Source: Amoebophrya sp. A120 (Eukaryota > Protista > Dinoflagellata). Taken from it: DNA of 64,000 nt. This document shows positions 1,047-61,195 of this stretch, piece after piece. Position 1 is the stretch's first letter, and each line of letters opens with the position of its first letter. The stretch spans positions 7,859,882 through 7,923,881 of the forward strand of contig CAJINV010000003.1 in NCBI GenBank assembly GCA_905178155.1. Reading direction: 5' to 3'. A model generated the notes under the pieces. It saw only the letters and a list, made by a program, of their open reading frames with translations. It made no database searches and was not told the origin of the DNA. A program made the translations under genes and the position numbers.

Positions 1047-2818
1047 ATCAAGGGAAAGCACAAACCCTACGAACCGACCGTACGCGAGTAGCAAACCATT
1101 TATGGCGAGAGTTGTTTCTTCATACCTGCAGCTATGCCACATCAGTCGTCACACGAGACGTTTCTGCAAGTGCGTACCATTGATTTTTGCTGAATAGTAG
1201 CACAGGAATCACTTCTGTAGTATGCAATAACATAAGCGCTATTGGTACTTCCTGTCCCAGCATAGGGAGAGGACGAGAAAAAACATTTCGTCATCTCGAC
1301 TGCCGCCTCATGCTCCCGCGCGGAGAAAAAACAAAAACCGACACCCTGTAGTAGTGCCGACTCAAAAAAAAAACCAGGAGCCGAGGCAGGTGCTCAGAAT
1401 CTAATGCTCATGGTCACTCCAATTCTAATTCTTGGGCTGCTCATGCATTTTGAGAAGCACCAACGAATACCAAAACAAAGAACCGAGTAGTCGCTTGTTC
1501 TCAAAGAATGATCGCGATTTCCATTTCTACAACCGAGAACGGCGTATATAAAGCGGTGGACCGATCGCGGACTCGCGACTGACGAAACCGCGCAAGATGG
1601 ATTTCGCAGTACAAAAAAATCCGAGAAAAGAGGTGTGAGCTCGAGCGACCAGTCCTGAAAATGCGTGCTGTGCGTCCTGTGAGAATTACAGGGTGCCCCC
1701 TCGTCTAGGAGGTCCACGGCCATTTTGCCGTGGGCCAATATTTTCAAAGCTTCCCGATCATGGTATGCACCGCAGTTTGCATGAAGTTCGAAGGCATTCT
1801 CTTTCTTGTGCTCGTTCAGTACTAAAAGTAGTTGTCATCATTTCATCGCCCTGCGGATTCTCGGACCGGGCACCAAGAAGGTCGCCCATCAGGGAGGCGA
1901 CCTGGATCTTGTATAGTTAAAGTTAAACTTATGTATGCACTCGGTCAAATGAACACGGTAGACCGACAAGGACATTGTGTGAGGGAGGACCGGAAGACGG
2001 TTTCAACATAACTTCCCCGGTTGATGCAATAGCTGGCACCCTTTCGCGTGAAATAGATGCAGATGCAGTATGAGTATCTATCTTTCTTTGTGTAGTTATA
2101 TATACTACCTACAATACTCGCGAAAGCCATACATACTTGATGCTTCCGAAACAAGCAAGTTCACTCTGCCAGGGATGCCACACGGCAGTGTGGCTCCGCA
2201 ATGCCTGGAAAGAAAAAAGTACGAAGTGCTCTCAAGAATGCTGTCGAAAAGCGTGCGGCCTCGCGTGGGAACGCACTGTCCGCCCCGCGTTGCTGAGGAG
2301 GTAGCCGACAGCGAGAACAAGAGCAGCAAAAGCAAGCTGCAAAATGTCTTCCAGGCGGTACAGTCGGTGCCGTGCGTCATCCTGTGTAAAAGCGTACTAG
2401 CCATCCTCCAATAGTCAGGATTATGGGCATTCTTCTTTATGCGAGGACATCCTTCATCTCCCGATTTGAGCCTGTTTTCCCCCTGATACGAGCCGAGCTT
2501 CCTTTTGTCTTTTTGCTCGCTCCCCCCCCGCCAGCATGCTGGCATTTGCGTCGTCCCCGATCTGCAACGCGTCCTCCGTACAACAAGGCACCGCGGAGGG
2601 CGAATTGGTATCGCACAAGAAAAACCATCGGGACTGCCGTCCCTCTATCCTGGTTTCACTTTCAGAATGGCAAATCCCTAACGAAGTAGAGACAACATCG
2701 GAAAGCGAAAGCACTCGCCCTCATGTTGGGGTGGGGCTAACCATGACACACATCCTGGGCTGCATGGAGAAGAAGATTTGCATGGATTCACATGACAGAG
2801 ATTAGTGTCGGTACGCTT

Positions 2819-5800
2819 TTACACAGGATACGCGTACGACGGGGCCACGTAGGCTAGAATGTAGAGAATCACGTCTGCCCGAACCAGTGGATTGCGCACG
2901 TGCGCGGCTTGGGCCAAAGCCAGCCAGTAGCGACGCTCGGCGCTTTGGTTGAAAAGCCGCCGAAGCAGCGCATACATGGTCGGAAAGAGTAGTCTAGTCA
3001 CAGCAATGCTGGTCTCGTCGGTCCAAAACGCTAACGCGCTGCTGGGTGATCCAAAGAGGAACGCACTACTTCTCCATGCTGGGTTGTAGTCTGGGGGCAC
3101 GGCTTCTGGACCTCGCCCAAACCAGGAGGCCGCATTCAGAGCTGCAGCGGCCACGCCATGGTCGCTGCCCTTGGTCAGTTGCCGGTCTTCCGCAAGAAGG
3201 GCCCACACTGTAGTCGCAAGCTCCGGTATGCGTGCCAAGAGCAGAAGAAAGAGCAGAGGATCGCGGCACAGGAGAAAGAGGAGCAGGGTGAAGCAGGCTG
3301 GGTTCAACCCAACCAGGACGACGGCGCCAACCAGTAGTATGGGCACCACGTCGCTTCTCAGAAAGGGCAAAAGCTGCAAGTCCACTTCCGCTGTCAGCGA
3401 GTCAACATATAAAGCTTGCGGCGTGTTGGTGTTCGTCTTCTCCAAGTGGATAGTTCCTTGTTCGTCTTGCTCCTTTCCCATTTTCGCTGGCTCATCCTCA
3501 TCCTCTACGGAGCTCGCGCACCGCTTTTGACTTGCAGATGATGCACTCTTCGAAGACAGTGGTGCTGAAGGTCCTACCTGCCGTGCCGCAGCCTCCGACC
3601 TACGCTCTGCAGCTTCCAACGACCATACCAGCCTTCTCCCATGGGTGCTATGCATTGCAAACGTACAGCTCAGGCAGTACTTACCGGACGAAATTCTGTT
3701 GCAGTCGCTTCAATCGGATTTACAAGTTTTTCCAAGTACAACGTTGCATAATTCTGCTCCTTCGTTACGTACTTCTAAATACTTATTTCATTCGTCAGAC
3801 ACAGAGAGAGCTGCTCTTCAGTCTTGCAGTCGTGCTGTAAGGTCCTCGCATACAATGGTACCTTTGCGAAGGATACGTACCAGGAGAGGTTGCTGTGCCC
3901 GCGTCGTCTGGTGCGGTGGCGGCTTGAGTTTCCGACTTCGCTGCGCTAGGACGTCGGGAGGAGCAGCTGCAATATCTCCTTCCAGCGCAGCAACCTAGTC
4001 GTCCTCTTAAGCAATTGTTTGTGGCCTCGAACAGTAAGAAGAAAAAGAGAGCAATGCCAAGCCCCAGAATAGACAGCAGGTACAGTAGTAGAAGATTGTA
4101 ATCCTTCTCGATGTCGGCGTAAGCGAAGCCACGCGGGCTGCGTTTGTGAGAAGAGTGCCGCGCACTTTCGTTGTCGAGCGCCACAACTTCCTGTCGAAGC
4201 AACGTAGCCAGTGCAGTCCGCGCCTTGGCGAGCATCGCGGCACCGGGTGCTTCCGGATCTGGGGCCATGAACGGACTGGAGAGGAGATAGAGTGCCCAAG
4301 TGAAGGTTGCGAATTCTGGAACAATTGTGAGCAGAAAACGGCTGCCCTGTCGCGCGAGCAGATTGTATGTAAACGGCTGGAAACCCGGGAGCCGTGCGAG
4401 CAGGAAGAGAGCCCCCGCGACCAACGAGCCCAGGAGGTACGGAACGTACACCCGGAAAATTTGCTTCAGACACGCCAGCAAGTTCCCTTTTGCGTACACT
4501 GCTTTACCCCGCTCCAGCTGCATGAAAGCGAGAAACACGGAGTTCCGACCGAGCCCCGGTGCGCTGATGGATCTGGTTTCTTGTCCGCTACCTCGTCCAT
4601 GTGCTGCACCAGCAGAACTCGTTCGCATGGCAACATCCTCCACGTTCCAACTTCGAGGGAGAACGGCCGCAAAAGCAGAAGACGCAATCCAGTCGAGTCC
4701 GAAGGGTGATAAAAACTGTGCACAGCTGCGGCGCAGCACGATAAGGAACCGCCACATCTGAGAATCAGGCACGGTTCTTTCTGGCCCCATTGCTGTGCTC
4801 TCGCCTGAAAACCCGCCGATGGAGCCTTTGCGCTGTGTTCTGCGACGGTGCTCATCGAGCGCTTCTTGCAGTTCCTTCTCGTCCGCCGGGGAAAAGAAAT
4901 CCTTCAAGTGAATTTTGCCGGAGGTGGCTGCCAGTTTTTCTGCATTCACGGCGGTATCTCCTCCCTTCCGCCGAAAAATTTCCTGGGCCTTGGCTTGCAC
5001 AATCCGCTGCTCCTCCTCATCGAATTCGCCTTGAGGCGAGGATTGCTGGTCTGCCGACGCGAAGAAAATGACGGGCTCCCCGCGGCTGGCGCGGCAGTGT
5101 GCCGCGAGGGAGAAACGCGGGCTCCATACTCGCGGATGGCTTTCTGCGTCCAACAGACCGAGGTTATTTCGCCAACTGCTTTTCGTGAGACCAGCGGTAC
5201 CAGCCGAGCCGAGGCGCCCGACCGAAGCCAAGTCACCGGAGCTGTCCCACGCGAGGCCGAGGCCCTCCGAGGTGGCGTCGTCCAGAGGGCCCTGGCCCGC
5301 CCCAAAGTCCGAAGAGGCAGCGGAACTCGTCGCGTGGTCCAATTCTTGCGGTTGTTCCGAGGCAGCCGTGAAAAAATCGAAGGAAAAGAGTTCGTAGTCT
5401 AACTCATCCTTCGATAGCACCACCCAGGTAAATAACGAAGTCGAGTCCGCCGGAATCACCTCCAGGGGCACGACCAACGAAGATACCCAGTCCCACAAAG
5501 TTAGCGATCGGAGGCGATTCAACCCCCAAGTTTCTCGGTGCGCCGCGAATCCACGAATCTGAAATTTCGAAGGGTTAGAGGCTGAGGATGCAGCGGCTGA
5601 GATCTTCGCGGACCCCTTCATATTTACTTCACCTCTCCCATCCTCCACTTCTTCGTCGATTTTCCCGCCGAAATCTTCATGATCCTCACGACCCACATCA
5701 TGCCCATCGTCCGAGAGATGAAATAGCTGCTCGTCATTCGTTTCGACCGCTCTTTTCTTTCCTCTGCTGTTATTCCGAGCTTTTGTTTCCTGTGTCGCGA

Positions 5801-8185: not shown

Positions 8186-11100
8186 CTAAATTCGATGCTG
8201 ATAGGAGCCTGCCTTGGTGATGTAGCGAATCCACTTGACAGGGCGGTAGTTGCTTTTTTCCTGCACGCGCAGAAATCTTACCCGCAACCCTGTCGCTGTG
8301 AACATGGGCACCTGAAAGTCCATGCTGATCGGGGGTCGCACCCACTTCGTCGCGGTGCTCGCTCCAACCTGAGCAGTTCCGGGACCGCCTGCGGGTGCCG
8401 CACTCAGGGGCAACCCCGTCGTTAGATCGTCGCTGCTAAGTTCCACTTCGGCAGACAGCGTGTTTTCGGTGTTGCCGGGAAGCCTATGAAAAATAAAAAA
8501 TCCCCCTCTTCCCATGTACATATTGAAACTGGAAACTCTTGTTCTGATGCAGTAGATTTGTGCACACAAACGAAATCATGTTGTCTTCCAGGATTGCATC
8601 ATCTTGAGCGGATGCTACTAACTTAAGTAAAACTACTGCGTAAGAACTAGTAGAGTTCTAGCTGTTCGGCACCATGGCGGTAGATTCCTCACCTGCACTT
8701 ACTACTTAAGTGCCTTTTTGACCATGGCGGGTACTAAGTAGGGGGATAATAATTTTTCCTCATGATAAAACCGGCGTATCCGCCAGACTAGGTCGCTCTG
8801 TTCGTGCTTGGCTTTGCCGTTGGTGGCGGAGTGTACCATAACCCGGGTGGTGGACTTGGGTACCGGGATGGTAAGCACCACGTTTGTGGCGTAACAGTTT
8901 GCGTCGAACAGCGACTTCACCTTCAGCGAAACCTCGAGCCTATTCCGCCCCCGCTCTTGTACGAGCGGAAGGAGCTTGAAGGGGCACTGGATGTTTTCCG
9001 TGATCCGGTACTGCATCAATTCAAACGTGCCGTCGGGCGGAATAAAGGTGATGGTTTTCTCGGTGTCATACTTGCTCAGCCGCACACACTGATGGAAGCG
9101 ACAGTCGTCCATCACGATCTGACCTTGTTGACTCGTCTTGACGCCGCCACTTGCCCCGCCGGCCGCTGCCTGCCCGCCGAGTACCAACTTGTCGTTCATC
9201 CCAAACTTACCTTGTTGACGAGTATAATGTATTGCCTTCATCCGTCATCTCATGCTTCCAATCTAGAAGTGCTGAGAAGGAGAACCACAACAGCTTGATA
9301 CTTACTATGGGACGAACAAGCAAAAGGTAATAAGTACATTCGGGCATTCCGCTGAGCAGGGCTTTCACCATGATCTGTCCGGAAACATCGGCCCGGAGAA
9401 GTGTACCGGAATTGCTTAGCAAGACATTCACGGACTCGATCACGTCAATATAGACTTCGTTTTTCCTGGAACAAGATTTGGATTTTTCACTTCCTTATGT
9501 ACATCGTAACACTACTTCTGAGATCTTCATCTTTTTCCACATACGGCCATGTCACGAGTTACGTTGAAGATGATGTTGAAACTACACGTTTTATCTCTCC
9601 ATCACACACTACAGGAGCAAAAATATCACAATTTCGTCAGACACACACACACAGTGCAGTAATAGTTGTTCATGCTCATGCAGGAGCAGAAAGAATAAGA
9701 AACCATAACAATTACATAATATATTAATTTAGACTACCCATGTTTGACCCACGAGCAACCCATGAGGAACCCACCAGACCCACCACCGACCCACCAACGA
9801 CCCACCAGCGACCCACCAACGACCCACCACCTAACCCACCTTTGACCCATGGATACCAATGCGGAAATGGGATTTGCGGTGGTACCCCCGGGGGTGGGTC
9901 CCTGGTACCCCGGGAGGTGGTCTGCGGTACCCCTCGCCGTGGGTTTGATGGACAACCTCCGGCGAGGTCGCACAACATCCGGCGACGCTGCTTCCTTGGG
10001 GCGGGCGGGACCTTGGTGCCGCGACTCGAGGCACCAAGCCAAGCCCCGCTGGCTGCCGGGAGGGTGCGAGGGACGGGTGGGACCGTGGTGCCGAGAGTCA
10101 CGGCGCCAAGCACGCCCCGGGGGCGAGGGGTGGATCAATGGGACCTTGGTGCCGCGACTCGAGGCACCAGGCCAAGCCCTGCTGCCGGGAGGGGGCGAGA
10201 GACGGATGGGACCGTGGTGCCGCGAGTCACGGCACCAAGCTTGTTTTGGGGGTGTGGGGTGGATCGATGGGACCTTTGTGCTGCGACTCGAGGCACCTAT
10301 CCAAGTCCCGCTGCCGGGACGGAGGGGGCGAGAGGCGAATGGGACCGTGGTGCCGCGAGTCACGGCACCAAGCATGCCCCGCTGCTTCCTTGGGGCGGGC
10401 GAGACCTTGGTGCCGCGACTCGAGGCACCAAGCCAAGCCCCGCGGGCTGCCGGGAGGGTGCGAGGGACGGGTGGGACCGTGACGCCGCGAGTCACGGCAC
10501 CAAGCACGCCCCGGGGGTGAGGGGTGGATCGATGGGACCTTGGTGCCGCGACTCGAGGCACCAGGCCAAGCCCTGCTGCCGGTAGGGGGCGAAAGACGGA
10601 TGGGACCGTGGTGCCGCGACTCACGGCACCAAGCACGCCCCGCGGCTTGAGGCGGGTGGGACCTTGGTGCCGCGACTCGAGGCACCAAGCCAAGCCCCGC
10701 TGGCTGCCGGGAGGGTGCGAGGGGCGGGTGGGACCGTGGTTCCGCGAGTCACGGCACCAAGCACGCCCCGGGGACGGGGGGTGGATGGATGGGACCTTGG
10801 TCCCGCGACTCACGGCACCAAGCACGCCCCGCTGCTTGAGGCGAGTGGGACCTTGGTGCCGCGACTCGAGGCACCAACCAAGCCAAGCCCCGGTGGCTGC
10901 CGGGAGGGTGCGAGGGACGGCGACGGGTGGGACCGTGGTGCCGCGAGTCACGGCACCAAGCACGCCCCGGGGACGAGGGGTGGATCGATGGGACCTTGGT
11001 GCCGTGACTCGAGGCACCAAGCCAAGCCCCGCTGCCGGGACGGAGGGGGCGAGAGACGAATGGGACCGTGGTGCCGCGACTCACGGCAGCAAGCACGCCC

Positions 11101-18490: not shown

Positions 18491-21278
18491 TTACTTCGGC
18501 GTGAAAGTTAAGTCCCGCTGCTGTGCAAAGTCCTGCATATGCCTATCCACAAACGGATTCGCTTCGTCCTGATCCATATCCGCAAAACAGTGATTGACGT
18601 CCCGATGATGCGTCTCGTCGGCCAGCAACTGAAGATGTGAAGATGAGAATAAATACATGAAAAATCAATCTTGTTTCAGTGCATAGAAATGGACTCTTTA
18701 CGACTTGGGAACAGTAAAACGAATTATGCAGTATAAGATTTTTAAATCATTATGATACGTTCTCGAGCACGTGCACCCACTCCGCGTCATCCCTCAGGTT
18801 CCAGTACGCCTTGGCCAAAGGCGGCGCCGGGAGGCCGTCCCAAGCCTTGTGCAGTTTGGTGCCCGGAGTTCTCGTCAGCCGAACCAAGTCCGTGTACGTA
18901 AGCACTGCCGTTTCTTCCAGGTACCCGACAAATCGGTGGAGGGCTTTGGGATGGACCTAAGGAAATATAGAGTGGCTGATTTTCCTAGGAGTGAGAGTGC
19001 AGTTCTTGCCTGGCGCGGCAATCGACCATTGACCGTCAGACATCTCTGGGTAGTGGTCGTGTCAACATAAGCACAAACTTATGGTCGTTATGTCGGTGCA
19101 CTGACTCTCGTCGTTGCAATAGCAAGCCACGAAGATGCCTGTGTCTCTCGAAACTCAATTGGTGGAAAAATCTATCTTTGCTACACACAGGACTCTTATC
19201 TTCTCGCAACAAATTGTATCTGCGTACCATATAAGTGGCAGTGAGGAAGGTCACGATTCCGATCTGCCCAAGCGCACAAGCGGTGCGGGTCAGGATTCCG
19301 GCATCGAACATCTTCATGCAAACAAGCAGGTGCATGCGTTTTTGTATCGCAGGAAAAACACTGGCATGTCCACGTGGCGCTGTATTGCGTCGAATGCAAG
19401 AAGACAGTAGAATGCATCCCAATCTCGATGTCCTGATGACAAAGACGCAAGAAAAGGCAAAACATTCATACAGCAGCGTTTGCGCAATCCCGATGGGGTC
19501 ACGCTCACAACGCGCTGGGCATGACCTAATTCGCGATGCAAACTACGCAACATTTTCGTCACAGTGAAAAAACAGGCTGCTTTTCTCTGCGATATCATTC
19601 TGGGCCTCTTCGATGAGTGTGTGAATCCAGCCGTGGTCTCTGCGCAAGGTGCGCAACGAATGAAAATGCCGTAGCACTCCTGCAACCATTCCGGGGACCT
19701 GTTATGTTTGTTTATGCATAACTTTGTGTCAGAAGAGTGCGATACAATTTTCAGCACGGTCTTGCTGGGATAGTATTCGTATTGGCAAGTCGGTAAAAAA
19801 CAACTATATGCGTTCCTCGTTGGCTCCCAAACAAACGAAGCCACGCCGGAGCTTTTCATCTAAGTATCTTTAATGTTATGCGTTGTACTGCGAAGTCCGA
19901 GAAATAAGTAAAAGTTGCGCGTGTCAGTCAAGCTGTACCCCTGCGATTGATTCCAGGATGATGAGCCGGTAGGCACAGGATCGCGGCGTAGGGTCCTTGT
20001 AGTCGAAGCCCGTGAGATATCCACTGCAAATATGTCTAGGTTCTCTGGGAGGATGCAGGTATTTGCGATGCAGACTTTTCATGCCCATCGAGGTCTGGAA
20101 TGAGTGACCTACTTAGCATCCCAGATTGCCGCAAGACTTTTACTTTACAACGTTTATCCCGCAAAAAAGAAGCTACACTCTGTGTCACAAGAAGAAAGAA
20201 AAGCAAAGGGCAGCTTTTCCTATTATACATTGATGTGATCTACAGGGGGCGTCACAAATTTGCGGTCTTGTTCCAGACCCACACACATTTACAATGCGTA
20301 TGACGAAGTTGAATCCCCGATACAGCACGGTCTTCACGAGGTGGTACATGAACTTGTCCGCCAAGGTATCCTGTGTAAAAACGTCTCCATCCCATGTTTG
20401 TCATGCAAATCTGTTTCTGTATGACTCAAATGCTTCTCATGCGCAGCGACGCAAGAGGCGTTTTCTAATCTTGTCTGGGAGTTGGTGATGCTAGAATCAG
20501 GAGAATCTGGGCCATTTCTGATGCGGCAACACTATCTAAAAACGATTGCACTACGATCCGAAATTTGTCGTACACGACAACAGCCAAAATTTGTTGAATT
20601 GTGTAGCCAAAGTCACACCTTGACTGTGGGGAGGTGGAGACGTTTCTGTACAGGATACCAGGTTTTAGGCACATGCACAGGCTGGGGCTTCTCCAGCCGA
20701 GCACGAATCTCCTCCTCGCTCCAAATGTGGTTCACCATTGGTATCATGTACGTTTGTTTATCATAAAAGTGGGAGTTTGTCCGCAGCATGCTGTTCTCCG
20801 TACTGCCCGTTTGCTCTTCCACGGCCGTAGAAGCAGTGGCGGCAGTACTGGTATCGACCGAGGGCGTTTTTGCGAAGTTGGTGTTCGTTGTCGGCTCCGG
20901 ACTTTTTCCCTTGTCGCGTGGAATGTGAAATCCGCCGAGTTTCGGGTGCAGCTCTCCGCCTTTACCTCGGGTGTCGTCTGTTTGTGAAGCAACACAGAAA
21001 AACTGTAAACTGAGAAGTGCAACAGCCTAGAGGACTTTCTGTTGAAAAGTACTTGTTGTGCGCTGTCAACATTGTTCAGAGCGGACCCACACGACATCGA
21101 GATCGACATGAAGTACCACTTATTATTAAACAAACTACTTACTTAGAAAGATAGGTCCGTGCTTACCTGTTTGCTTCGACACCGGGAACTGCTGCGCGAA
21201 GGACCTCGTGAAGAGTGGTCTCATTTGAGACGGTCTCCGTAAAGCCTGAGCACCACGACCAACGGCAAGGCGCATCAT
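18491..21278 (-). CDS. AOX: Mitochondrial alternative oxidase, 8 exons (4 GT-AG and 3 non-canonical introns)
   Basis: Spliced model gives [47 protein letters not shown], plus an Arg-rich N-terminal presequence. Not visible as a long ORF in the track. Confidence 0.92.
19345..19594. mobile_element. TIR intron element splitting AOX N-E-R-M-H
   Basis: Ends tatcgcaggaaaaaca / revcomp tatcgcagagaaaagca. Flanks AATGA/CAAAA. Removing element+5 nt gives AAT GAA CGC ATG CAC. Confidence 0.9.
20018..20300. mobile_element. Degenerate TIR intron element in AOX
   Basis: Ends tatccactgcaaatatgt / revcomp tacgcattgtaaatgtgt. Flanks CGTCA/TCTCA. Removal restores GFNFVTGFDYK. Confidence 0.8.
20367..20657. mobile_element. 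TIR intron element (TATCCTG family) in AOX
   Basis: Ends tatcctgtgtaaaaacgtctcca / revcomp tatcctgtacagaaacgtctcca. Flanks CCTGG/CCTTG. Removal restores PKT(W/L)ADKF. Confidence 0.9.
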
Positions 21279-22039
21279 TTTTGTTCCTGTACTTTTGTCG
21301 AACCAACAAAGGTAGAAAAAGCAGGTGAATGCTGTCCGAGACTAAGCACTTTCGAGAATAAAAAAAGTATGACTCATATGCCCATATCTTCAGGATAATA
21401 TTAATTGTGTACTACACATAAGATGAGCGGAGAGGTCGTTCCTTTGCGTGTCCAAAGGAGTTCAGGGAAGTGTATCGATGTTTCTGAAGGCTGTTCTTGC
21501 TCGGTTTTTATGAAACACATTCATCAGTACGCTTAGAATACTTCTCGCATGATGGCAGCATTGGTAGTAGGAGATCACTGTTTGTTTTTTACCGACATTT
21601 TACTCTTGTTGTGACTCTCTCGAACATGCTCGCAATCGTCGCATCACTCTGCTCATCCTCCTGATTTAGGCATTGGGAGCGAAACTACTGGGCAAACCGA
21701 TGGTCGACCGATTTCCTGGATCCATACCTGGCACTGATGAAGAACTTTTCACATTTTCTAAAGTAGATAGGGAGAAAAGTAGAAATCGAAAAACCGTCGG
21801 CGCATAATCATTTTTAAGTACTATAAGGAGTTCTGTCTCATTTGCGCTGCAGTTTGATGTGGTCAAAAGAATACGTACTACACACGCGATCAGTACCGCG
21901 GAGAATCTACCAGCGGGGGCTGCGGTTCACTATATATCGTGAACAGGAACGGGATTATGAGAATTTCTCCTGCATGCTTGATGAGGAATGTGCGCCATTG
22001 AGCCCGCCGTTTTTATTCAGTTCGTGTTCCAGGTCAATA

Positions 22040-29747: not shown

Positions 29748-30274
29748 TGTTAGTGGACTTGAGAACACTCGCACACACTTCCACACGTTTGCTCCACTGA
29801 GCTCGTTATCAACAGCAGTTCAATGAGTTCTCTCAATTGCAAGCAAGCAAGCAAGTGACGCAAGTCTCTCGCTGCGTTACATCCTGTAGGTTCAATTCAT
29901 CCAAATTCATCGCATTCATATGGACCAAACCTGGTCAGAGTCAAGTGGCAAAACAGCATGGGAGTCCACTCCTCAACCTGCTCAGATTGGTGCTCGACCC
30001 TGGCGGGAGTCAAGTCCCCCAGGGCGACCATTCTGAACGTCTGGACCGAGCTGAGTCCATTCATTTCACTACGATCCTGATGGCTTTGCCTTCGTAGTAT
30101 TTGGGGGATTCGCGGAACATGGTGAAGAGTTTCCTTTAGGATCTAGATAGATTCTGACCATTTCCCTAAGGATCTAGCTAGTTCAGGTCATTCAGAGCTG
30201 TCATTTCATTGGGAACAGGCGTCATTTGGGGCGATCGTGTTACGTGTGTGCGGGATCGATTTCCATGACCAACA
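29748..30274 (-). repeat. 3' LTR (527 bp)
   Basis: Near-identical to 35426..35953, about 14 differences by eye. Confidence 0.95.
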
Positions 30275-30367
30275 CCCCTCCTCAATCGCTGCGGCGGTGG
30301 TGCTAATCTGGATAGCGTCCTACCACACTCCCCTCCTGAGCGCGCTGTGGTGAACTAGCTATCCCCT

Positions 30368-35380: not shown

Positions 35381-35425
35381 TTATCTGACTATAAGAGCCA
35401 GTTTGAGTCTCAAGGCGTAACGTAG

Positions 35426-35953
35426 TGTTAGTGGACTTGAGAACACTCGCACACACTTACACACGTTTGCTCCACTGAGCTCGTTATCAACAGCAGTTCA
35501 ATGAGTTCTCTCAATTGCAAGCAAGCAAGCAAGTGACGCAAGTCTCTTGCTGCGTTACATCCTGTAGGTTCAATTCATCCAAATTCATCGCATTCATATG
35601 GACCAAACCTGGTCAGAGTCAAGTGGCAAAACAGCATGGGTGTCCATTCCTCAACCTTTTCTGTTTGGTGCTCGACCCTGGCGGGAGTCAAGTCCCTCAG
35701 GGCGACCATTCTGAACGTCTGGACCGAGCTGAGTCCATTCATTTCACTACGATCCTGATGGCTTTGCCTTCGTAGTATTTGGGGGATTCGCGGAACATGG
35801 TGAAGAGTTTCCTTTAGGATCCAGATAGATTCTGACCATTTCCCTAAGGATCTAGCTAGTTCAGGTCATTCAGAAACGTCATTTCATCTGGGAACAGGCG
35901 TCATTTGGGGCGATCGTGTTACGTGTGTGCGGGATCGATTTCCATGACCAACA
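35426..35953 (-). repeat. 5' LTR (528 bp)
   Basis: tgttagtgg...gaccaaca, followed by TSD tttac. Confidence 0.95.
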
Positions 35954-43121: not shown

Positions 43122-45167
43122 CTACCTGGTGGATGGCGCCCGCAATCCGACCCGAAGTTCGTGCTCCTGGGGAAGAATATCCTCGTAGGAAACGAAGATT
43201 CATTCTGTGTAAAAACTCTCTATACAAGCCGAATCGACCACGCGTTACGCGCAAACGAATGCAGCACACGCAAACCACACGCTCGTCATGCATTTTCGCA
43301 TGCAGCTATCCACCCGAGCCACTTTCCAGCTACGTTACTTTAGAATTAGATAGAAACTTGCTATGGTCTCTTCAGAACACGATAGATGACGCAGACATGG
43401 TAACTGACCGCAACTAGGACTATTCTATGCTGTCACGCAGAACTCCTATCACTTGTTGATCTGAACAGCAAAACCCCCGTGGTCGTGCTTTTGAACGTAG
43501 GAACGTTTTTACACAGGGTAGCTCTGTTGCCGTAGCAAGGGTTCGGTTTTGTTCCTGGAGCGCCGACCGGCAAACGCCTCGGCCGCTTCCATGGTCGAGT
43601 AGTGTCCAACCGCATTGCATGGTCGGCGAATGAGGCGCATTCTGGCACATCGCAGCCGTGTAGTGATCTCGGCACAGGTCGTAAGTGGGCTCGCCCCTGC
43701 AACCTTTTCCCGGATGAAGCGAGCATCGAGGAAAAAGCTCATTGCACTGTGATTATCAAATGAAAAAAAGCAAAATGAAGCAGACAGCGACGTTGGCGTA
43801 GTTCCTGCACTGCAAAGAAAGTATATGCAGTAAAAAACAATGGATGCTTGCACAGTGCTGCAGAAGCAGACCAAAAAATTTTTAGTTTTAGGCATGCACA
43901 GCACAGCCATTTGCAGGGAAGTATCATCTTAATACTATATCGACCCCGTTCTGTCTGTTCATCCCTTTTCTTTGTTTTGCATACTGAGTGCGTGGTCGCC
44001 TGACGGCATTCCTTATCGAGAATGACGGCCGGATCTGGTGTTTGTTGTCCGGGGAGGTTCCAATGTACTGATGAGCGTCATGCTCTCAAACTCTGTCTGC
44101 AATACCACGTACGCAGAGAGTGAAGCGTTCTTTTTGCATCAAACAAAGATGATAGATTATGATGGGATGATCTATCACGCAAAGCAAATAGGGCACTTAC
44201 CTCGTTTCGCCTGGTTGATGCAACGGCTTCCCGTCCACAGACACGCCCCCGCGCAGCCCGCTTCCTGTGTGTTGCGACCGCAGAAATCCTGATGGCACTC
44301 TTCTTATCGTAAGGAAAAATCCCCCCTCCCCATATCAAAAAGAAGTTTCTGATGTTGGATTTGGGTACACAAATCAGGTCTGTCTTGCAGAAAGTGCTTG
44401 GCGGCATTTTGTAAGCCTGTTTGAATGTGCAGAAGGCTAGCAATAAGGCATGACAAACAGGTTTGCAGTAGTCAAAAGCGAATGACAGACTGGCTGTGGA
44501 ATGCGCCACATTGCTCCCATTACCCTATAGGCAAGACAGAGGGTATTTGTGACCACAAATCAGCATGACAAATTTCCTTTTCGATATGGGGAGGGGGGAT
44601 TTTTCCTTTTGATACTTCTTCGGGCTTCTTGACGGCCTCTGTCGCGTAAAAGCCCTCGGGATCCGCCACGTCTTTGGCGGAGAACACGCACTGCTCGTGC
44701 TATGCAATACAAATTTCCTGTACATGTACAAAATGCATCACAAATTTCACCAATTTGGGGCGTAACACTTGTCATGCTAAACTAGGATCGAAGCCCAATT
44801 TTGTCATGCAAAAACCGCATTTTTACGTGTACGGGAAATTTACTGTGGATACGTGCGCATTACACACTACACGTCCTTCCCCGGTCAGCACGGAACAGAG
44901 GTCGTCAACATAAGCGTCGGAGGACTCAGCTTCACGGTCAGAAGATCTCACTGTGTTCAGAGCTAGCGGCTTCATGCCCACTGTTATTCTAGAAAGCAGA
45001 ACTATCCTCGCGCCGGTACCAGCAGAACGGCGTGAACAACCTGATGCTGCTGGGCAGCTGCAACTGGACTTAGCTGAGAAAGCCTGAAAAAACGGAGAAG
45101 GCCGCTGGTGCCTCTTCCTCTGCTCCCAAGCGGCCCGCTCCCTCGCCCTTGCGAACGTCGCTACCAT
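43122..45167 (-). CDS. Cys-rich repeat protein, multi-exon (partly reconstructed)
   Basis: Splicing out three TIR elements yields modules DLCSVLTGEGRVVCNAHEQCVF, DFCGRNTQEAGCAGACLWTGSRC and DLCRDHYTAAMCQ...CGW...GVC. Start and two junctions unresolved. Confidence 0.6.
43201..43520. mobile_element. TIR intron element (TATCCTG family, degenerate)
   Basis: Ends cattctgtgtaaaaact / revcomp taccctgtgtaaaaacgt. Flanks AGAGC/AATCT. Element+5 nt removal keeps the frame. Confidence 0.7.
44305..44614. mobile_element. TIR intron element (TATCAAAAGGAAAAAT family)
   Basis: About 35-bp TIR tatc..aaggaaaaatcccccctccccatatc, perfect TSD cttct. Homologous along its length to 53545..53865. Confidence 0.93.
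44701..44851. mobile_element. Short TIR intron element
   Basis: About 35-bp TIR (aaatttcc.gtaca.gta.aaaatgc), perfect TSD cgtgc, two internal ttgtcatgc. Confidence 0.9.
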
Positions 45168-48284: not shown

Positions 48285-51065
48285 CTATTTGTCTTTTTTC
48301 GCAGTAAGTTCCACGGCGGCAGCATCAGCGTCGATCGCCTTGAGACGTTCCAGCAGAGTAAAGAAATCCCGGAAAAAAACTCCAGCACAATCACGGTCAT
48401 TTGATGCAAGCATGATGAAACAATCGTAGTTTTGTCAGATCTGGATCTGTTGAAATAATCGAAAATTTTTCAGAACGTCCAACTCAGTTCCAGTCACGAG
48501 CAGTACAAGAGGAGTGTACTCCATTATTCTGCTAAAGCCAGGAGGACCGGGTCGAGATATGCAAAGCTAGCATGCTTTTGATGTCAACACTCCATCAGTC
48601 TTTTACTCTCTCTGGTTTTATCCTGAATATAGATGCAAAACAAGCTCGTAGACACTGTGAGGCCTTAGAAGTTTTTTTCTCTTCCGTAAGGATGGGAAAG
48701 GTTGTACCACGCCCAGAGCGGATCCTCGTTGAACCCGCTCTTGTTGTCATCCGCGAGCTTGATCAAGCCCTGCTTGAGCCCGGGGCCGCGGTTCAGCTCC
48801 ACGTTGGCGAAACGGTCCGCCTGAAACTCGAAGACCCGGGTGAGGCAGGTCATCGCGCGGTCCAGGACCGTGTCCAGCGGCTCCAGGAGCATGCTGATCA
48901 GCATCACCCCCATCATCTTGCTGTGCAACGCGTGCTGCATGCCAAAGGAGGCAAAAATCGCCGCGCTCTCGGGCGAGTAGAGCACCATGCCGATGATGTA
49001 AAACACGCAGAACAGCTGCACGCTGCCGATCACCAGGTTCCAGAGCGTGTGGCCCTTCTTCCAGTGCCCCAGCTCGTGCCCCAGAATCGCGAGGATCGCG
49101 TCATGCGGCAAGTGCAGCAGCGTGTCGTACAAAACGATGCGCCGATACTTCCAAATGCCGAAGAAAAACGCGTTGCTGTGCGCGGACCGCGTGCTGCCGT
49201 CCATTTGAAAAATCTTGTAGAGCGGAAAAGACAGCGAACCGGCAAGATCCTCGATCTTGGTTTTTAGCTCCGCGTCTTTGATGGGCTCATACGTGTTGAA
49301 CCGTGATGCAAGGAAATAAATTGGTGATCCTCATTAATATAGTGCGGGCCCCAAGTAGTTGTAAACTTCGTACTACAGAGTTTTTCATTGTCATGTCTTT
49401 CTGTCATTTCTCTTCGCATATAATGCTGCTACTTGTCTACATTTATCTGTCTTCCACCTGCTCGCACGACATGGGCCAGAACCAGGATTACCATTTCTTT
49501 TCCTTTCGTAAAAGTGGCATGATGTAATTTGGCACCAACCACATCATAAAAACACCAAAAACCTGATGTGCGTATATTCATTTGATGGTGGGACTTCTTT
49601 TTAAAGTTAGTAGGGCGTGCTAGCTTTCTTCACACAGCTTAATATAATCCCATGGAGCTGCAACCAAACAAATCAATCTAGATGTGATGCTGCTAAGTAA
49701 TCATTCATCCCGTTCCCGCCCGTCGTTGTGAGGAAGAGGAACTATAAAGAATTTTGAGAAAAGACATTAATTGACAGCAAGTACACACCTGCAGGAAGGC
49801 CCAGAGGTAGATGTAGAAAAGCTCGCCCGCGTAGTGGACCAAGTGGATCAGCACTGGTATGAGTAAAAGGGTAAAAACCGTGGACAGCAGCTCGGACTTA
49901 AGCAGGTCGGAAACAAAGAGCTATCACATTGAAAAATGCCCTCACCCAAAAAAGTGGGCGCTTTTGTGTAGCGAAAGTTCCCCATGTAAACACGACCTGC
50001 CATCTTGCATGTATATAAGTAAGTCTGTGCTGCTGCACGAGAGAGCCGCCACAGTATAAGCAATGTCTGTTTCGATTATGTTGAAGTTGCGTATGCATAT
50101 CTGAGTCATCTGACTTTGATTCGGAAATTGCCTCGCGCTCACATTTGCAACATTTCCTTCATGCAATACAAAAAGTTTCCGTGTGGACGAAAGAAGTTTG
50201 GAATGCAAACTGTTTAGTCGGACTGCACTTTTCAATATGATAAGAGCCGCATGGTCTTCTTGTTGAACCCATGCTTTTCTTCGAGCACGAAATCGCTGTA
50301 CAGGCTGGTGACCAGTCCCAGGGGTAGGTCGATGTAGTGCGTAAGAAAGTGAAAGACCAAAAACTCGGGCACCTCCCGGGACGCGCCAGTGGAAGTGCTG
50401 TCCGTGAAGTTACTATCAAACGCAAGTATGGCCTCGTGTCTGGAAGAACGCAGATGTTCGTCATGCTCATACACACTTTGCATACTAGCCCATCATGATC
50501 ACTTCTGTGCTGCATGCTCTACGACCATCACAGATTTTTTGAGGGCCTCTTGATGCCTATCCCGCATGAGAAATGCCCTGCTCTCCGCTTAGCAACCCTT
50601 GGAGAAGCCTCTTGCTGATCTTGCAATTTTTACACAGGATTTTTATAAAATAATCCAGAGGCAGTGCCAGAAGTTGCACTTTATTACCCGACCCAGACAT
50701 ACTTGCAATGCATACTTCCACTGCTCCGCCAGCTCCATGCTGGTGCGCCACACCCACGGCTTCACGCGCAGCAGCATCACGAGCCCGATCAAAAAGTTTA
50801 TCCAGCTGCACACCATACCGAACACGCGCTTGTCGTAGTTGTACTGCCGCGCCTTCTCGAACTTCTCGTACGCCTTCTCCTTGTCCTTCTCGTCCAAGAT
50901 CCCGTACGAGAAAACCTCCGGTGGGATGGTCTTCTTGCGGTCCTGTCGGAGTTGCCGCCATTCTAGATATTCCTCAATCACATGCAGGCCAGCGGAGAAC
51001 ACCAGGTACAGACGCAGGTAGTCGAAGAGTTCGGAGGGCATGGTGGAAGGAGCTGCGCCCATCAT
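48285..51065 (-). CDS. STE24: CAAX prenyl protease 1 (peptidase M48), 6 exons
   Basis: EEKHGFNKKT, PLFN, DGSTRSAHSNAFFFG, RIVLYDTL, LGHELGHW, EFQAD, SHPTLLERL. One GT-AG and four TIR-type introns. Confidence 0.93.
48365..48688. mobile_element. Degenerate TIR intron element in STE24 (SHP|TLLERL)
   Basis: Both ends carry gaaaaaaact in inverted orientation. Intron 48360..48688 reads TA...TT with no AG. Confidence 0.7.
49305..49510. mobile_element. TIR intron element in STE24 (PLF|N)
   Basis: gatgcaaggaaataaattggtgatcc vs revcomp tacgaaaggaaaagaaatggtaatcc. Flanks ACTTT/ACGGT. Confidence 0.85.
49922..50242. mobile_element. TIR intron element in STE24
   Basis: tatcacattgaaaaatgc / revcomp tatcatattgaaaagtgc, perfect TSD agagc. 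Removal restores MRLFVSDLLK. Confidence 0.92.
50414..50714. mobile_element. TIR intron element in STE24
   Basis: tatcaaacgcaagtatg / revcomp tatgcattgcaagtatg. Flanks GGAAG/GTAAC. Confidence 0.78.
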
Positions 51066-52614: not shown

Positions 52615-55600
52615 CTACCGCTTTTTGCCGTGCCGAAAAACGACGTTGCCCTGCGGTTGCCGCTGCTCTTCCGGTAGCACGTTTTGGCTCAGGTAATTTC
52701 CCGCATCTTTTTTGTTTTGTTTGGGCTGCGAGTGCATGGAAAAAACGTCATCCTGGTGAGAATTCATCGCCGCCTGCAGCGTCCGGCGCTTCAGCAGGTC
52801 CTCCTCCTCTTTTTTTCTGGTCGCAATCTGCGTGTGCTATCCTGAGTAAAAACGTCCCCTCCCCATCCTCGAGTTGGGAACTCTGCAAGAAAAAACAAAC
52901 AAATGATCTTTGCCGTGGCACAGGACAAGAACAGTCGGCCCGTAGTATGATCCTCTTGAGGTAGTGCAGCCGCATGAGAAATCGAGAAGCTTATCCTGAT
53001 TGTAGCATGACAAGCTCCCAAATCATAGCACGTAGAAAATGCCTCGCATGTCGTGGCTGCGCATGAAACAAGTAAAACGTGTCACGCATGCAGTTATGCA
53101 TGATAACTCTGGGATGGGAGCATGTAGTTCGCTCAGGATATTTGCTGTGAAATGTTGAGCAGGCAGGCTTGCGAAAGCATGTTGTCCTCCGGCACGTGTA
53201 TCACCTTGGGCTCGCGCTTTGGACCACCCGGCTGGTTTGCGCTGCGGGACAGCACTTTGAAATCCAGAAACCCCGGACGCGACTGCTGGGTGCCGCCCGA
53301 CGCCGGCGCGGCCCCCGGCGTCACCTTCGAAAAACTGCCACTCGTACTAGACGCCGCGGACGAGGAAACCTCGGCCCCCGCGGTGCGCAAACTATTCATC
53401 GTGTTTCGGCCTCCAACATTTTGGGCGTGTCGGTGCCGCTTCACGTCCTCGATTCCTGCGTTTGTCATCGCCAAAATTTCTTGGTCCATTGCGACCTGCA
53501 TCAGGTCAGCCTCGGACATCTGCGGCTCTGCGGGCGCCGGCGGATATCAAAAGGAAAAATCCCTCCTCCCCATATCAAAACGCAGTTTCTGACGCTGGAC
53601 TTGCGTACACAAATCAGATTTGTCTTGCTGTAGAGGACTGCAGGCCTATGCTGAGCCTGAGTAGCGAGGTTTTGGGCTAGGTGCCGAGTATGGCAAAGGT
53701 CTACTCTGTAGGGGCGACAGCATGACAAACCGCCCGCAGAATGCAGCGGAGTCTGAGGAGTTGCGTTCTTGCAAGACAGAGACGATTTGTGGCCACAAAT
53801 CAGCATTGCAAATTTTCTGAGACGTACCTTTTCGATATGGGGAGGGGGGATTTTTCCTTTTGATAGCGGAAGCCCGAGGTTTTGGTCCTCGTCCGTGTCG
53901 GTGTACTCGTCCGTGCTATCGTCCTCGTCTTCCTCGCTGGACGACGACTCGCTGTCGCTGGGACTGCCCGAGGACGAGGGCGAACCGCCATCCGCCTTCC
54001 GCGCGTCCTTCGCTTCGGCCGCCTCGATGGCTTTCTCCGACGCCTGCCGCACGGTTAGCAAATCGTGCTTCAGAATCTTCAACACATCGGTATCCGCCTT
54101 CAGCGCGTCTCCGATCGGCTCCTGCACCAGTTCCAGCGAATCCTCCACGGCATTCAAGGCGCGAATCGTAAGCATTTCCGGCCGGACCAGCGCAAACCGC
54201 CGGAAGAACACGCAAAACTTCTGCATCTTGATCTGTTTTGAGAGGGGATTTTTCACAGCAAACATCTTTTGCTATCAGCCCCCGGTGACCACCTCGAGCA
54301 TCATCTTCAGGATCGAACGAACGAGTAAAAGTAAAATAGCAAACCTCCAAAAAACAATTAATGAAATATTTCGCGATGCTGAATCGACACACAATTTACT
54401 TTTGTTTCAGCTTCCGCAGCTGTCACATCACCGGGCGGCCAGTGATGCCAGCGAAGAACGATGAAGATTTCTTGTCTACGATATTGAATACCTTAGCCGC
54501 GCCAGCTTTGAAGAAGTGGCCAATTGAGTCGAGCAGGACGCAAACCTGGCGCAGGCGGAAGGTGTCGGCGAAGTCCGCGCCGACGTGATCTGGGTGGTGG
54601 ATGCCGTGGGGCCACAGCCAGAACTTCGAGAATTCGTGCCAGAGCTCGTAGTCCTTTTCGAAAAAATCCAGGGCCCGCGCCACCGCGTCGATGTTGTCGT
54701 TGTTCGGAAGGTTGGGGAATTCCGTGGCGAGCATCTGCACGTAGGTTGGTTTCGAACGGTTCCGGCGGCTGAACCGCTGGCTCTTCTTGTCCACCTTCCC
54801 GTTCCCGTCCGCAGTAGACGCATTAGTTTCGTCCGCCGGAGAGGGGCGGTTCCGCTTCGGCTCCGTCCGGACGTAGTCTTCCCACACCGCGAGGATGCGT
54901 TGGCCAAACAGGTCGTAGAGCCGAGTGAGGTGGGAAGCCCGGTAGCTGGTGGCGCCGCCCCACCCGATCAGCTGGTAGAGCACGTCGAAGACCACCTGCG
55001 AGTCGACCAGGCGGAAGGCGTAGAACTCCCCCAGCAGCTTCAGCTGCCGTGTGCGGAGCGGCTGGTCGCGGAAGTCCGCCTTCTCCAGGCCCAGCTGGAT
55101 CTCCTCCAGCAGCGTGTCCACGCAGTCCAGCGTGAAGTCCTCCCGGTACTCACTGAGGTCCTTCAAAAAGTGCGCCACGCACCACAGGTGCTCGTAGTCG
55201 GCGTGCAGATTCAGGTCCAGCAGTCCGCGCTTCAGCCAGACCTCCACCTTGGACGCCTCCTCCTTGTACACGCACCCCGTCTTCACGCGCAGCTTGGCGC
55301 CGCTCTTCCGCGTCGCACGAATCGTGGACCACGGCAGCTGCAGCACCAGGTGCACCGCGGAGTGGACGTCGTCTGCGATGTAGATGTAGGTGGAGCACAA
55401 CCACATAATCAAGCGCTCGATCTCGCTCTTTTTCATTTGCCCCTCCTTGTCGGCCAGTTCGCGCTTCTTGTTCTCCGGCGGTTTCAGCTGATAATACCTG
55501 TGGCGGAAGGGAACTAGATAGAAAACCACTCACCCCGACATTTCTCTTTTGCGTCATCATGGGGTGAACATACCAAGTAAAACTACCGTGATGTTGATAC

Positions 55601-58337: not shown

Positions 58338-61195
58338 TCCGTTCCGGCGCCGACGAGAGCAAGGACTTCTGGGAACTCCAAATCGGGTCGAGCGTGAGAG
58401 GAGAGCATGTAATGAATGTAGTGGTTGAAAAAATGTTCTTGCCTTGTCTCCGACCAAACGACTGATGCCATGCTCATGTTCAAATCCCGCTTACGCTAAT
58501 TTGCTGCGACATCGACAAAAATTTACTGTCAAACAAGAATGCCGCTGCGCTACTTTTATAAATACCTAAATGACTACACAACATTGGTTTACTACTGTCA
58601 AAGAGACCTACCACGAAACTATTTGGTCGCTGCTCAATCGGAGTAACAACAGATTGTTTTTCCTGATCAGTTGCATCCCAACTTGCTTCTTGTGTGCGCG
58701 CGTACAGGATCTTCCGGATCGAAGCTTCCGCCAAGAGAAGTGCAGCAGAAGCCTGTTTGACAAACAGAGTTAAGATCCCTTCATGAGAAATTCGTTTTTC
58801 AGAATAAAAATAAAAAATACGCGGGAAAAATCATATACGGTATGGCCGGACGTTTTGTGAAAATGACTTTCTACACAATATCCAGGTTCCACTTTTTTGC
58901 GAGGTACACTCCTATCGAAGAGAAGCAATGAAACAACAGCACAAAAATAGGTCTTTCTCAACACCAAGGATCGGCAGCAGCCTAGAGTGCAGTGGAGCTG
59001 GAGACACGATCTTTCTTGGAGTTGCAACATGAAAGCCGAAGTCGGGATCACGTTCAAGAACAGAAGGAACTCGTATCATACCACACAATACTTTTGTGTC
59101 CGACAGTTTCTCATGAATGTTGTCAAAGCGCTTCTTTCGCAATTTTGCGTTTTTATTGCGGTGCAATGCTTCACATTAAGAATTGGAGTTCTTTTTTGGT
59201 GGTCCAACTTGCAATACAGCGGAGCCGCACGTCAATAACGGTACTGAATGTCTAGCAGTGCGTTTAAGATTCAAATGACATCAAAAGGATTGACTTGCAT
59301 ACATTCACTCTTGTGCGATGAACGGCCGCCATTTTCCACCTGTGCGGTCAAGCGCTAAATCAGCATTTCCCTACGTCCTATCGAGATTATCCACAAGAAA
59401 ATTACACCCATACCAGAGTCAACATACAATATTTGCGCTGTTTTAGTGACGCCAAAAATTCAGATAAACGACAGAGACCAACATTCGTGATGTAAAATGC
59501 ACTTTGTCACAGAGGGTACGAGAAACGTTTGCGCTCAACAATTTTCTGTAACATACATGGTATGAGTGTATTTTCTTGAATGATAGAGAATTTACGTGAT
59601 ATCTCGGTCAGATAAGTATCTTGATGCTCATAGTGCAGCTTAGAGTTGTGCGCAAAAAGTCGAAAGCTCAAGCTAGCTCTTTCAGCTTCAGCGGGGGTTG
59701 CGGGCCTTGTGTTTTGTTCGCCATAGTCGTTTGGTTTAAGATGTCTCTTCTAGAAAATTTAATCACAAAAACAGGAATCAATACCAACATAGAATTAGAA
59801 AGCAGCCACATTTTCCACGTAATCATATTTTTCGGTAAAATCCAAAACAATACTTTCTTAATATCTGGGTACTTCCCATTGATTCGTTAGTATCTATATA
59901 ACGCTCAAAACCAGCAAGGTCGTAGTTCAAAGTCATAGCGAAAAAGTACGTGCGTTGAAAATGTCAAACTCTGACACTCATTCATGCTGTACCTGTACTT
60001 ATTGTTATATCCATCCCGTTGCAACAGACTGCATTCATTATTTGCGAAGCAAGTGGTACCTAGTTCGATTTTCGCCGTTCCTTCAAGAGGATCCATCTAT
60101 CACCACCGCTGACCCTTATACCGAACTTGCTCGACTTTTGCTCCGAAGAGCCCATCCGTAAACTTTGCCTCCTCCCGGCGTACCGCTGGCAAGTCTGCCC
60201 AAACCACATGCTGCCAAGCTCGCACAGACCGTATCATGCTGAAAACGCTTCCCTTTCCCTGCCTCCTTCTGAAAATCTTTGCAATAGGTGACTCTTACAG
60301 ACATGCAGAGAAATGCCTCCCACATCCTGCATCAGACTTGCACACAAGGAAGTATATCGACTTTAGAAGCGGTCAGATAGAGCAAAATGGCCGCTCAGTT
60401 ACCTCAATATGAACCTAGGCGTTGTTCTTGTGAATGCGTGTTAGAGAAAAAGTCGAGTTCGTGTGCTTGGGTTGGGGGCTCTCGCTCGAAATGGGATGGG
60501 ACATGGGTGGCGGTACAACAGGGGCTTTTACCTGACTCATGCCTGATCCCCCCGGCAGCGAGGTTCTTTACTGAACCACAGAGACCTCATTTTGTGTGTG
60601 GTGCGGAAAGAGTTTTCAACATGATAGATGGAGAATTGTTGTAGTATTCCCAGGGATTGCCGTTTCTTGAATATCGCACCAGAAATTTCTTTGACCGGTC
60701 GAGCTGGCACGTAACAAACACGATCCTGCGGCGCTGAACTTCATACTCATCTGTGTTGATTTGTTTTTGCCGCGTTTTCAAAATATTCAATCTGTACGTG
60801 CAACGCCAAACATGCCTTGCGCTGTCTTTTGGGCGTGAGTCTTGCTTTTACTATCCCGACGGACTGGAATCCTGGCAAATCAGTGTATCTATAGATACGC
60901 AGGCAAAGATCATGCGTTTTTTGCTAATATCCAAGTGCAGATAGAAATACCGCTGCCATAACAACTTCATGCTGCCCGCACAAGTGACATCAGCAGAACA
61001 TCAAGCAAATTGTGAATCCTAGTTTTTTTTGTTTGCTAGGCAATTCGTACACCGGTCGGCTTTCACTGTTTTTTTCGCATTTTTTTCTTTTCTTTTTTTT
61101 TTTTTGTGCTTTTCTCTTTCTTTTTTCTTTTTTTTTCTTTTCTATTCCGACACAGCTGGCGCACAAAAATCCTAGTTTTTGCCAGTACAAATTTA

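Follow-up and report, generated by a model that had tools for sequence, protein, structure and literature searches.

The window analysed here, a 64,000-nucleotide (nt) stretch of the genome of the dinoflagellate Amoebophrya sp. A120, a marine parasite of algae, carries on its minus strand the gene for alternative oxidase (AOX), which is interrupted by introns of two kinds: those with ordinary GT-AG ends, and those made of a transposon-like element whose terminal inverted repeats (TIRs) lie between two short direct copies of the target, the target-site duplication (TSD). A first-pass annotation had drawn attention to one of the latter at 19340..19599, with AATGA as the upstream and CAAAA as the downstream copy; position and copies were given correctly, and the pair lies on the minus strand inside the AOX gene. 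The gene for the CAAX protease STE24 holds introns of the same kind, as do other genes of the window (Table 1). We report that these elements are removed from RNA at a fixed length, independently of AG, and in one common register. The elements themselves are already known, and what is new is the register, as a rule for a known system. Literature searches, and passages of PMC12130899, PMC9860276, PMC11453091, PMC11282704 and bioRxiv 2020.10.14.339549, yielded no statement of it, and the figures of Farhat et al. 2021 (Fig. 3 logos and S19-S25 of PMC7789003) may show part of the pattern.

Transcript contigs and comparison set

Splice joints were taken from transcript contigs of runs X1-X4 in two 20-kb stretches of the window; X1-X3 come from one sample and X4 from another, both belonging to one study. 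The contigs are presumed to represent RNA, and they also skip the GT-AG introns. The first stretch (X1-X4) gave 14 joints, all of which were assigned, to six TIR introns and eight GT-AG introns. In the second stretch (X1, X4, X14, X15), 15 of 24 joints were counted, comprising 11 TIR introns, three GT-AG introns and one strand switch, while the nine unlisted joints enter no count. The raw-read runs X14 and X15 placed only 2 and 20 reads on that stretch. The total is 17 TIR-intron junctions (6 + 11), to which the fractions below refer unless another set is named. Each TIR arm was placed separately by the published TAT-N7-AAA consensus, and all equivalent placements of each joint were listed. 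The comparison set consisted of 43 loci of another assembly (L001-L043), fetched by the TIR pattern and holding 137 elements, which were studied at the level of DNA sequence. The 17 window introns served as the training set of the element finder, which found 16 of them again and is biased toward intact ends. Locus elements were oriented by a codon model which, in a control on the window, where the genes lie on the minus strand, called minus in 18 of 21 bins.

A common splice register

In all 17 introns the skipped length exceeds the TIR span by 5 nt, which bears out the earlier claim that the downstream copy stays 5 nt long. A cut 1 nt before the TAY of the 5' arm and 4 nt after the 3' arm, which we denote -1/+4, fits all 17 junctions, whereas the alternatives fit fewer (0/+5, 12; -2/+3, 11; -5/0, 5), and in random-register draws a common register arose by chance 11 times in 200,000. 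Six sites exclude -2/+3 and five exclude 0/+5; at five of the 17 sites, namely 2374, 3645, 43197, 43750 and 50410, base 5 in the RNA is that of the downstream copy. The -1/+4 register therefore implies a chimeric junction in which the mRNA keeps bases 1-4 of the upstream TSD copy and base 5 of the downstream one. Moreover, a skip that is always 5 nt longer than the TIR span takes out exactly one TSD length and leaves no scar in either orientation. All joints restore open frames, though in 11 of the 17 the intron length is not divisible by three.

Two positions for the 5' cut had been offered beforehand, at the first T of the element or 1 nt earlier (N-TAY), together with the proposal that the upstream copy as a whole is exonic. 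The latter holds for TSD bases 1-4 and fails at base 5. Twelve of 17 junctions, that in AOX among them, are compatible with a cut at the first T (0/+5), but contig joints exclude it at all three sites that the first-pass annotation had named as tests (3649, 43201 and 50414), and also at 2374 and 43750; within STE24 it predicts K116 where the RNA gives N. As a general rule it is refuted by these five junctions and deserves hardly any credence, and N-TAY is the favoured option. Likewise, the idea of a 3' junction 4-5 nt beyond the hairpin regardless of sequence stands as to a fixed distance that ignores AG, which is 4 nt rather than 4-5.

Indeed, no junction permits a GT-AG or GC-AG placement, any AG-ending placement at all is available at only three, and an AG acceptor in the common register occurs at none. 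At 3645, 8481, 50410 and 52834 there is an AG whose end lies 3 nt ahead of the acceptor, and no allowed placement uses it. With a GT donor in seven of 17 and T at +2 in every one, the introns do not conform to the GT of the U2 type; nor are they of the U12 type, AT-AC ends being present in one of 17, and minor small nuclear RNAs are reported absent in the text of PMC7789003.

The same text, with the legends of Fig. 3 and S23, calls the splice sites of A120 introners variable relative to the hairpin, at 1-5 nt from the inverted repeat, and calls their borders unknown, which would suit an explanation without any single rule, the cuts varying within the duplication among introns or molecules. Only the junction at 43197 is uniquely placed, the other 16 allowing 2-7 placements, and contigs hide minor forms. 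Against this, one register fits all 17, no second joint appears at any site of the first stretch (14 joints of 14), and aligner ambiguity in direct repeats would by itself yield the published spread. We regard variable cutting as quite improbable. That the ambiguous junctions all really use -1/+4 is in our estimation very probable. Furthermore, in Table S4 of PMC7789003 the nine listed predominant A120 classes all begin NT (GT, CT, AT or TT), and the nine classes of strain A25, whose inverted repeat starts TTA, all begin TT. From this agreement A120 and A25 would both have an NTA donor, an agreement to which aligner bias may add.

Which copy is kept in AOX and STE24

Where the two duplication copies differ at bases 1-4, the conserved protein results from the upstream one, as had been claimed. 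The contigs of all four runs skip 19340-19594 in AOX with 1 nt of ambiguity, and the spliced message reads AQNERMH, whereas retention of the downstream copy would read AQQKRMH. Solved AOX chains in the PDB carry EAEN at the aligned place, and we take the RMH half of the motif to be conserved as well. In the PDB, the exon that follows the 19340-19599 intron matched only unrelated repeat proteins. In STE24 the spliced model equals the annotated A120 protein P0001 over 459 amino acids, and the large exon is 100% identical to an Amoebophrya sp. A120 protein. Use of the downstream copies would give W115C, L231R, H434L and P435F; among 119 homologues L231 is found in 100, H434 in 117 and P435 in 117, position 115 not being conserved. 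At the intron at 50410 a wholly retained upstream copy would give K116, and RNA and annotation agree on N.

A hairpin with flanking repeats is a classic substrate for template switching by reverse transcriptase, and all the data presumably derive from complementary DNA, so that the joints might be conceived as artefacts of that kind. Yet at five of 17 sites the repeat at the joint is only 0-1 nt long, joints occur also where the stem is weak, and the joined form dominates AOX, at a depth of about 700-1000 compared with 10-20 for those listed contigs that retain an intron. In addition, 11 of the 17 lengths break the frame and their removal restores long open reading frames (ORFs) with conserved residues. 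We consider such an artefact a very faint prospect. The low-depth contigs listed for AOX lie at 18928-19255, 19670-19966 and 19986-20330 (depth 10-20, versus about 700-900) and retain two GT-AG introns and one TIR intron.

Identity of the elements

By their sequence, the TIR elements of the window are the published introner elements of Amoebophrya sp. A120, described in the text of PMC7789003 as having inverted repeats starting TAT-N7-AAA and direct repeats of 3-5 nt. Both ends of the window elements begin TAT, seven variable bases and AAA; the direct repeat at the exon/intron boundary is 5 nt; and the elements are removed from RNA at ends other than GT-AG (17 joints, none with a GT/GC-AG placement). 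The 5-nt flanking copies of the locus elements are perfect in 104 of 137 and match in at least four of five bases in 124. The elements also form repeated families, window elements matching many copies in L001-L043 (best 93% among the matches listed) and those at 44305 and 53545 forming a related pair inside the window. Being short, with TIRs and a constant TSD, they resemble miniature inverted-repeat transposable elements (MITEs), that is, non-autonomous TIR transposons. The TIR motif had no match in viral contigs, and Rfam gave none in the window. To the extent that PMC7789003 describes its introners, the likeness embraces the repeats, the short direct repeats, a length of 150-460 nt, RNA-supported removal and the repeated families. 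The difference is that here one register and an NTA donor cover 17 junctions, and that the TSD is constant at 5 nt.

Three further TIR elements are predicted at 511-772, 56983-57261 and 59388-59585, with TSD matches of 4-5 of five bases and none among the joints listed. Among the locus elements, that at L003:1501-1780 is flanked by a perfect duplication of 8 nt rather than 5, which under a ruler mechanism would add 3 in-frame nt to the message, and that at L012:764-1018 has a 4- or 7-nt repeat within a GAA run. L001:1501-1780 and L031:125-403 have a common downstream flank and different upstream flanks; the latter is without a matching duplication and is perhaps a recombinant or an assembly chimera.

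What sets the cut

Numbered in the common register, with +1 as the first and -1 as the last intron base, +2T, +3A, -7A and -6T are invariant in the 17 introns. The first base is G in seven, T in four, A in three and C in three, and the last four bases are free. Among the canonical introns of the window the donor is GTA in nine of 11. Where TSD copies disagree at base 5, the intron-side base is G in eight of 10 cases (4/5 in the window and 4/5 in the loci), whereas at bases 1-4 it is G in 13 of 44 (Fisher's test, p = 0.005); for this comparison 24 of the 137 locus elements, with a strand margin below 12 or fewer than 3 of 5 TSD matches, were dropped. Such an excess of G is what a donor preferring GT would be expected to produce. 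The two arms also differ in constancy. In a set of 94 elements, of which the locus part is 77 with seeded elements left out, +2T is without exception, whereas -5, with which it pairs, deviates in six (p = 0.03, uncorrected), and +4 is C seven times where -7 is G once (p = 0.07, uncorrected), the reverse of what G-U tolerance predicts. One 5' arm alone is without +3A: that of L037:278-602 reads TGTC, and with the preceding G it gives a GTG donor, as in two canonical introns here.

These observations must be weighed against the view that the stem itself is the ruler, an extension of the first-pass proposal that distance from the stem sets the cut as in euglenids: Euglena-like or other structure-guided machinery would measure the TIR helix and leave overhangs of 1 nt at the 5' and 4 nt at the 3' side. 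Several features agree with it. The pair +3/-6 is kept in 17 of 17 introns and the pairs +12..+14/-15..-17 in 16-17, a conserved triplet stands at -8..-6 with a 5-nt spacer as the CTG of Euglena does, terminal pairs are predicted to be well formed in nine introns, and U1 was not detected in A120 according to the text of PMC7789003. In folding predictions for the 17, the probability of the terminal pair is at least 0.5 in those nine, 0.4 in one and at most 0.1 in seven; at 3645, 8481 and 48361 the prediction shows a displaced helix or none, with the register unchanged. The outer pairs are broken at +4/-7 in four of 17 and at +5/-8 in eight, and the intron at 48361 opposes T to T, C to A and G to G without a change of register. 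A symmetric stem, moreover, leaves both the G preference at +1 and an invariant +2T beside a variable -5 unexplained, and the motifs of Euglena are absent. The kept +3A/-6T and A-run/T-run pairs still suit the earlier proposal, whose stem-defined distance is nonetheless less favoured, and we judge a stem ruler unlikely, if still to be taken seriously.

We prefer a spliceosome that would read an NTA donor and measure from the A at -7, because the outer stem is predicted unpaired in seven of 17 introns, because of the preference for G, and because +2T is invariant. In the mechanism that we propose, a relaxed U2-type spliceosome would read NTA like a GT with a free first base, the A at -7 in the 3' TIR would be the branch nucleotide, and the acceptor would be taken at a fixed 7 nt from that A rather than at AG. 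Pairing of the TIRs may bring the intron ends together without setting the cut, and perhaps stands in for the undetected U1; spliceosome parts are reported present in A120 and U1 not found (text of PMC7789003). The intron would have the form N-TAY...RAT-N-NNNN, from 1 nt before the 5' TIR to 4 nt after the 3' TIR. To this whole, the common register together with the relaxed spliceosome, NTA donor and acceptor 7 nt from the TIR A, we assign a probability of about 0.58.

A number of points weigh against it. All junctions are contigs from two samples of one study, and contigs drop minor forms; of the 17 junctions, that at 43197 is the only one placed uniquely. Half of the G cases depend on a strand call by the codon model, and the comparison of the arms carries uncorrected p-values. 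The triplet at -8..-6 (GAT in 12, CAT in four, AAT in one) is only partly like a branch consensus, and in canonical introns A is not enriched at -7 (5 of 11 against a background of 0.34, p = 0.30), the T-run being absent there too. Among locus elements with a confident strand call, position -7 is G in one and position -6 is C in two. Furthermore, the unbroken +3A/-6T pairs, the kept pairs between A-run and T-run, and the changes in the 5' A-run, which are mostly A to G and keep the pairing, suit a constraint on pairing.

A wider reading, to which we lend slightly less than even credence, is that the spliceosome has dropped the G of GT as well as the AG, so that an NTA donor and a branch A supplied by the transposon's inverted repeat would make any insertion with a 5-nt TSD a scarless intron at once, in either orientation; old copies would drift toward GT, and one code would serve the non-canonical majority of introns in A120 and A25. 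Clean splicing from any target and in either orientation would follow from two properties of the element, its near-palindromic form and the loss of precisely one TSD length. The text of PMC7789003 reports that over 60% of the introns of A25 and A120 are non-canonical and describes them as having no clear signature and no explained mechanism. A single register turns these introns into sharp tests, namely of a branch at -7, of an NTA donor and of matching changes in U5/U6 or Prp8. It would also explain how exons are invaded without a particular target, the TIR giving both signals and one TSD length being removed, and it allows annotated junctions, which number in the tens of thousands, to be normalised by one rule.

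Relation to other unconventional introns

Euglenid nonconventional introns, in the parts of Nomura et al. 2025 (PMC12501133) consulted, share with those described here TIR pairing, TSD-like repeats, the lack of GT-AG, fixed spacers and a triplet at -8..-6 on the acceptor side. Euglena needs N3-CDG...CH'G-N5-6 and a purine at the exon start, whereas here the form is N-TAY...RAT-N5 with any exon start and a preference for G at +1: CDG at +4..+6 occurs in one of 17, its partner CH'G at -8..-6 in none, and a purine at the first downstream exon base in seven. The spacers between motif and cut are fixed in both, at 2 and 5 nt around ATY/RAT here and 3 and 5-6 nt there. Euglenid introns are reported as circles in the excerpted review (PMC11282704). 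The MITE-derived introns of Fritillaria borealis, as partly described in PMC11282704 and bioRxiv 2025.08.15.670264, are likewise TIR and TSD transposons removed without GT-AG, in that case by the U2 spliceosome; unlike the present introns, whose last four bases vary freely in an organism where no U1 was detected, they have specific AG-AC or AG-AT ends and have kept U1.

Introners of Symbiodinium, Polarella and Aureococcus (bioRxiv 2020.10.14.339549 and PMC9860276, portions thereof) also have a constant TSD, a splice position fixed relative to it, and new boundaries that drift toward the preferred donor. Those introners need a G-starting donor or an AG from the TSD or element, which limits their target sites, whereas here insertion seems to be tolerated at any 5-nt target and in either orientation. 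Fixed distances from branch to acceptor are known too, the motif and AG being 2 nt apart in Yarrowia and 4 nt in Trichomonas and Giardia (excerpts of PMC2483917). The anchoring of the acceptor a few bases from a branch motif would be the same, with a candidate branch role here, but those organisms keep AG and a CTRAY motif, neither of which is present in our introns.

Further introns and gene context

Table 1. Genes, TIR introns and AOX element parts in the window (positions in the 64,000-nt window; intron ends in the -1/+4 register).
Feature	Position	Strand	Remarks
AOX gene	18491..21279	-	372 amino acids after removal of 7 introns (3 TIR, 4 GT-AG); joints, ORF, Pfam PF01786, PDB AOX
AOX TIR element	19345-19594	-	250 nt, between AATGA upstream and CAAAA downstream
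AOX TIR intron, -1/+4 register	19341..19595	-	AT...AA, 255 nt; joint 19339-19595 in X1-X4, 1 nt ambiguity
AOX upstream TSD copy AATGA	19595..19599	-	bases 1-4 exonic; base 5 (19595) is intron +1
AOX 5' TIR arm, TAT-N7-AAA	19575..19594	-	supplies donor +2T +3A +4Y
AOX 3' TIR arm	19345..19364	-	T-run -15..-17, GAT -8..-6; A at -7 is 19347 (candidate branch point)
AOX downstream TSD copy CAAAA	19340..19344	-	bases 1-4 intronic spacer; base 5 (19340) is first exon base
AOX TIR intron AT-TC	20014..20301	-	joint in X1-X4
AOX TIR intron GT-TT	20363..20658	-	joint in X1-X4; excludes -2/+3
STE24 (CAAX protease) gene	48285..51065	-	4 TIR introns and 1 GT-AG intron; gene ends placed by eye
STE24 TIR intron TT-TT (HPT motif)	48361..48689	-	degenerate outer stem; excludes -2/+3
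STE24 TIR intron TT-GG (PLFN motif)	49301..49511	-	excludes -2/+3; 3' arm call at 49305 marginal (4.5 vs 4.25)
STE24 TIR intron TT-TC	49918..50243	-	identical TSD copies
STE24 TIR intron GT-AA	50410..50715	-	excludes 0/+5
TIR intron GT-GC, PGAP1-like gene	2374..2831	-	joint in X4 only; excludes 0/+5
TIR intron GT-AC, PGAP1-like gene	3645..3876	-	joint in X4 only; excludes 0/+5
TIR intron TT-CT, adaptor medium-subunit gene	8481..8768	-	joint in X4 only
TIR intron CT-TC	43197..43521	-	joint in X1 and X4, ambiguity 0; sole uniquely placed junction, exactly -1/+4
TIR intron GT-CA	43750..43984	-	excludes 0/+5
TIR intron GT-AA	44301..44615	-	identical TSD copies, uninformative on register
TIR intron GT-AC	44697..44852	-	identical TSD copies
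TIR intron AT-AC	52834..53141	-	excludes -2/+3
TIR intron CT-CG	53541..53866	-	identical TSD copies
TIR intron CT-GT	60228..60627	-	contig joint

At 2832-2837 and 3877-3880, 4-6 nt ahead of the donors of its two TIR introns, the PGAP1-like gene has an exonic GTAC that the contigs leave unused; the same two introns have an exonic TACG just upstream of the 5' arm. The adaptor medium-subunit gene contains a GT-AG intron of 3019 nt (9466-12484), spliced out in X4, within which lies a GC-rich tandem array with units of about 60-70 nt (about 9950-12400). At 42471-47602 one spliced X1 contig of 3734 nt covers two ORFs of 382 and 286 codons, which may reflect read-through or an assembly merge. The window also holds, at 29748-35953, a full-length long terminal repeat (LTR) retrotransposon with TG...CA ends, near-identical LTRs and long minus-strand frames, presumably copia-like, a label given from reading alone. 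Its flanking target duplication, TTTAC, is perfect and, at 5 nt, as long as the TSD of the introners. TIR introners of A120 are reported with homology to LTR elements in the portion of PMC12130899 consulted.

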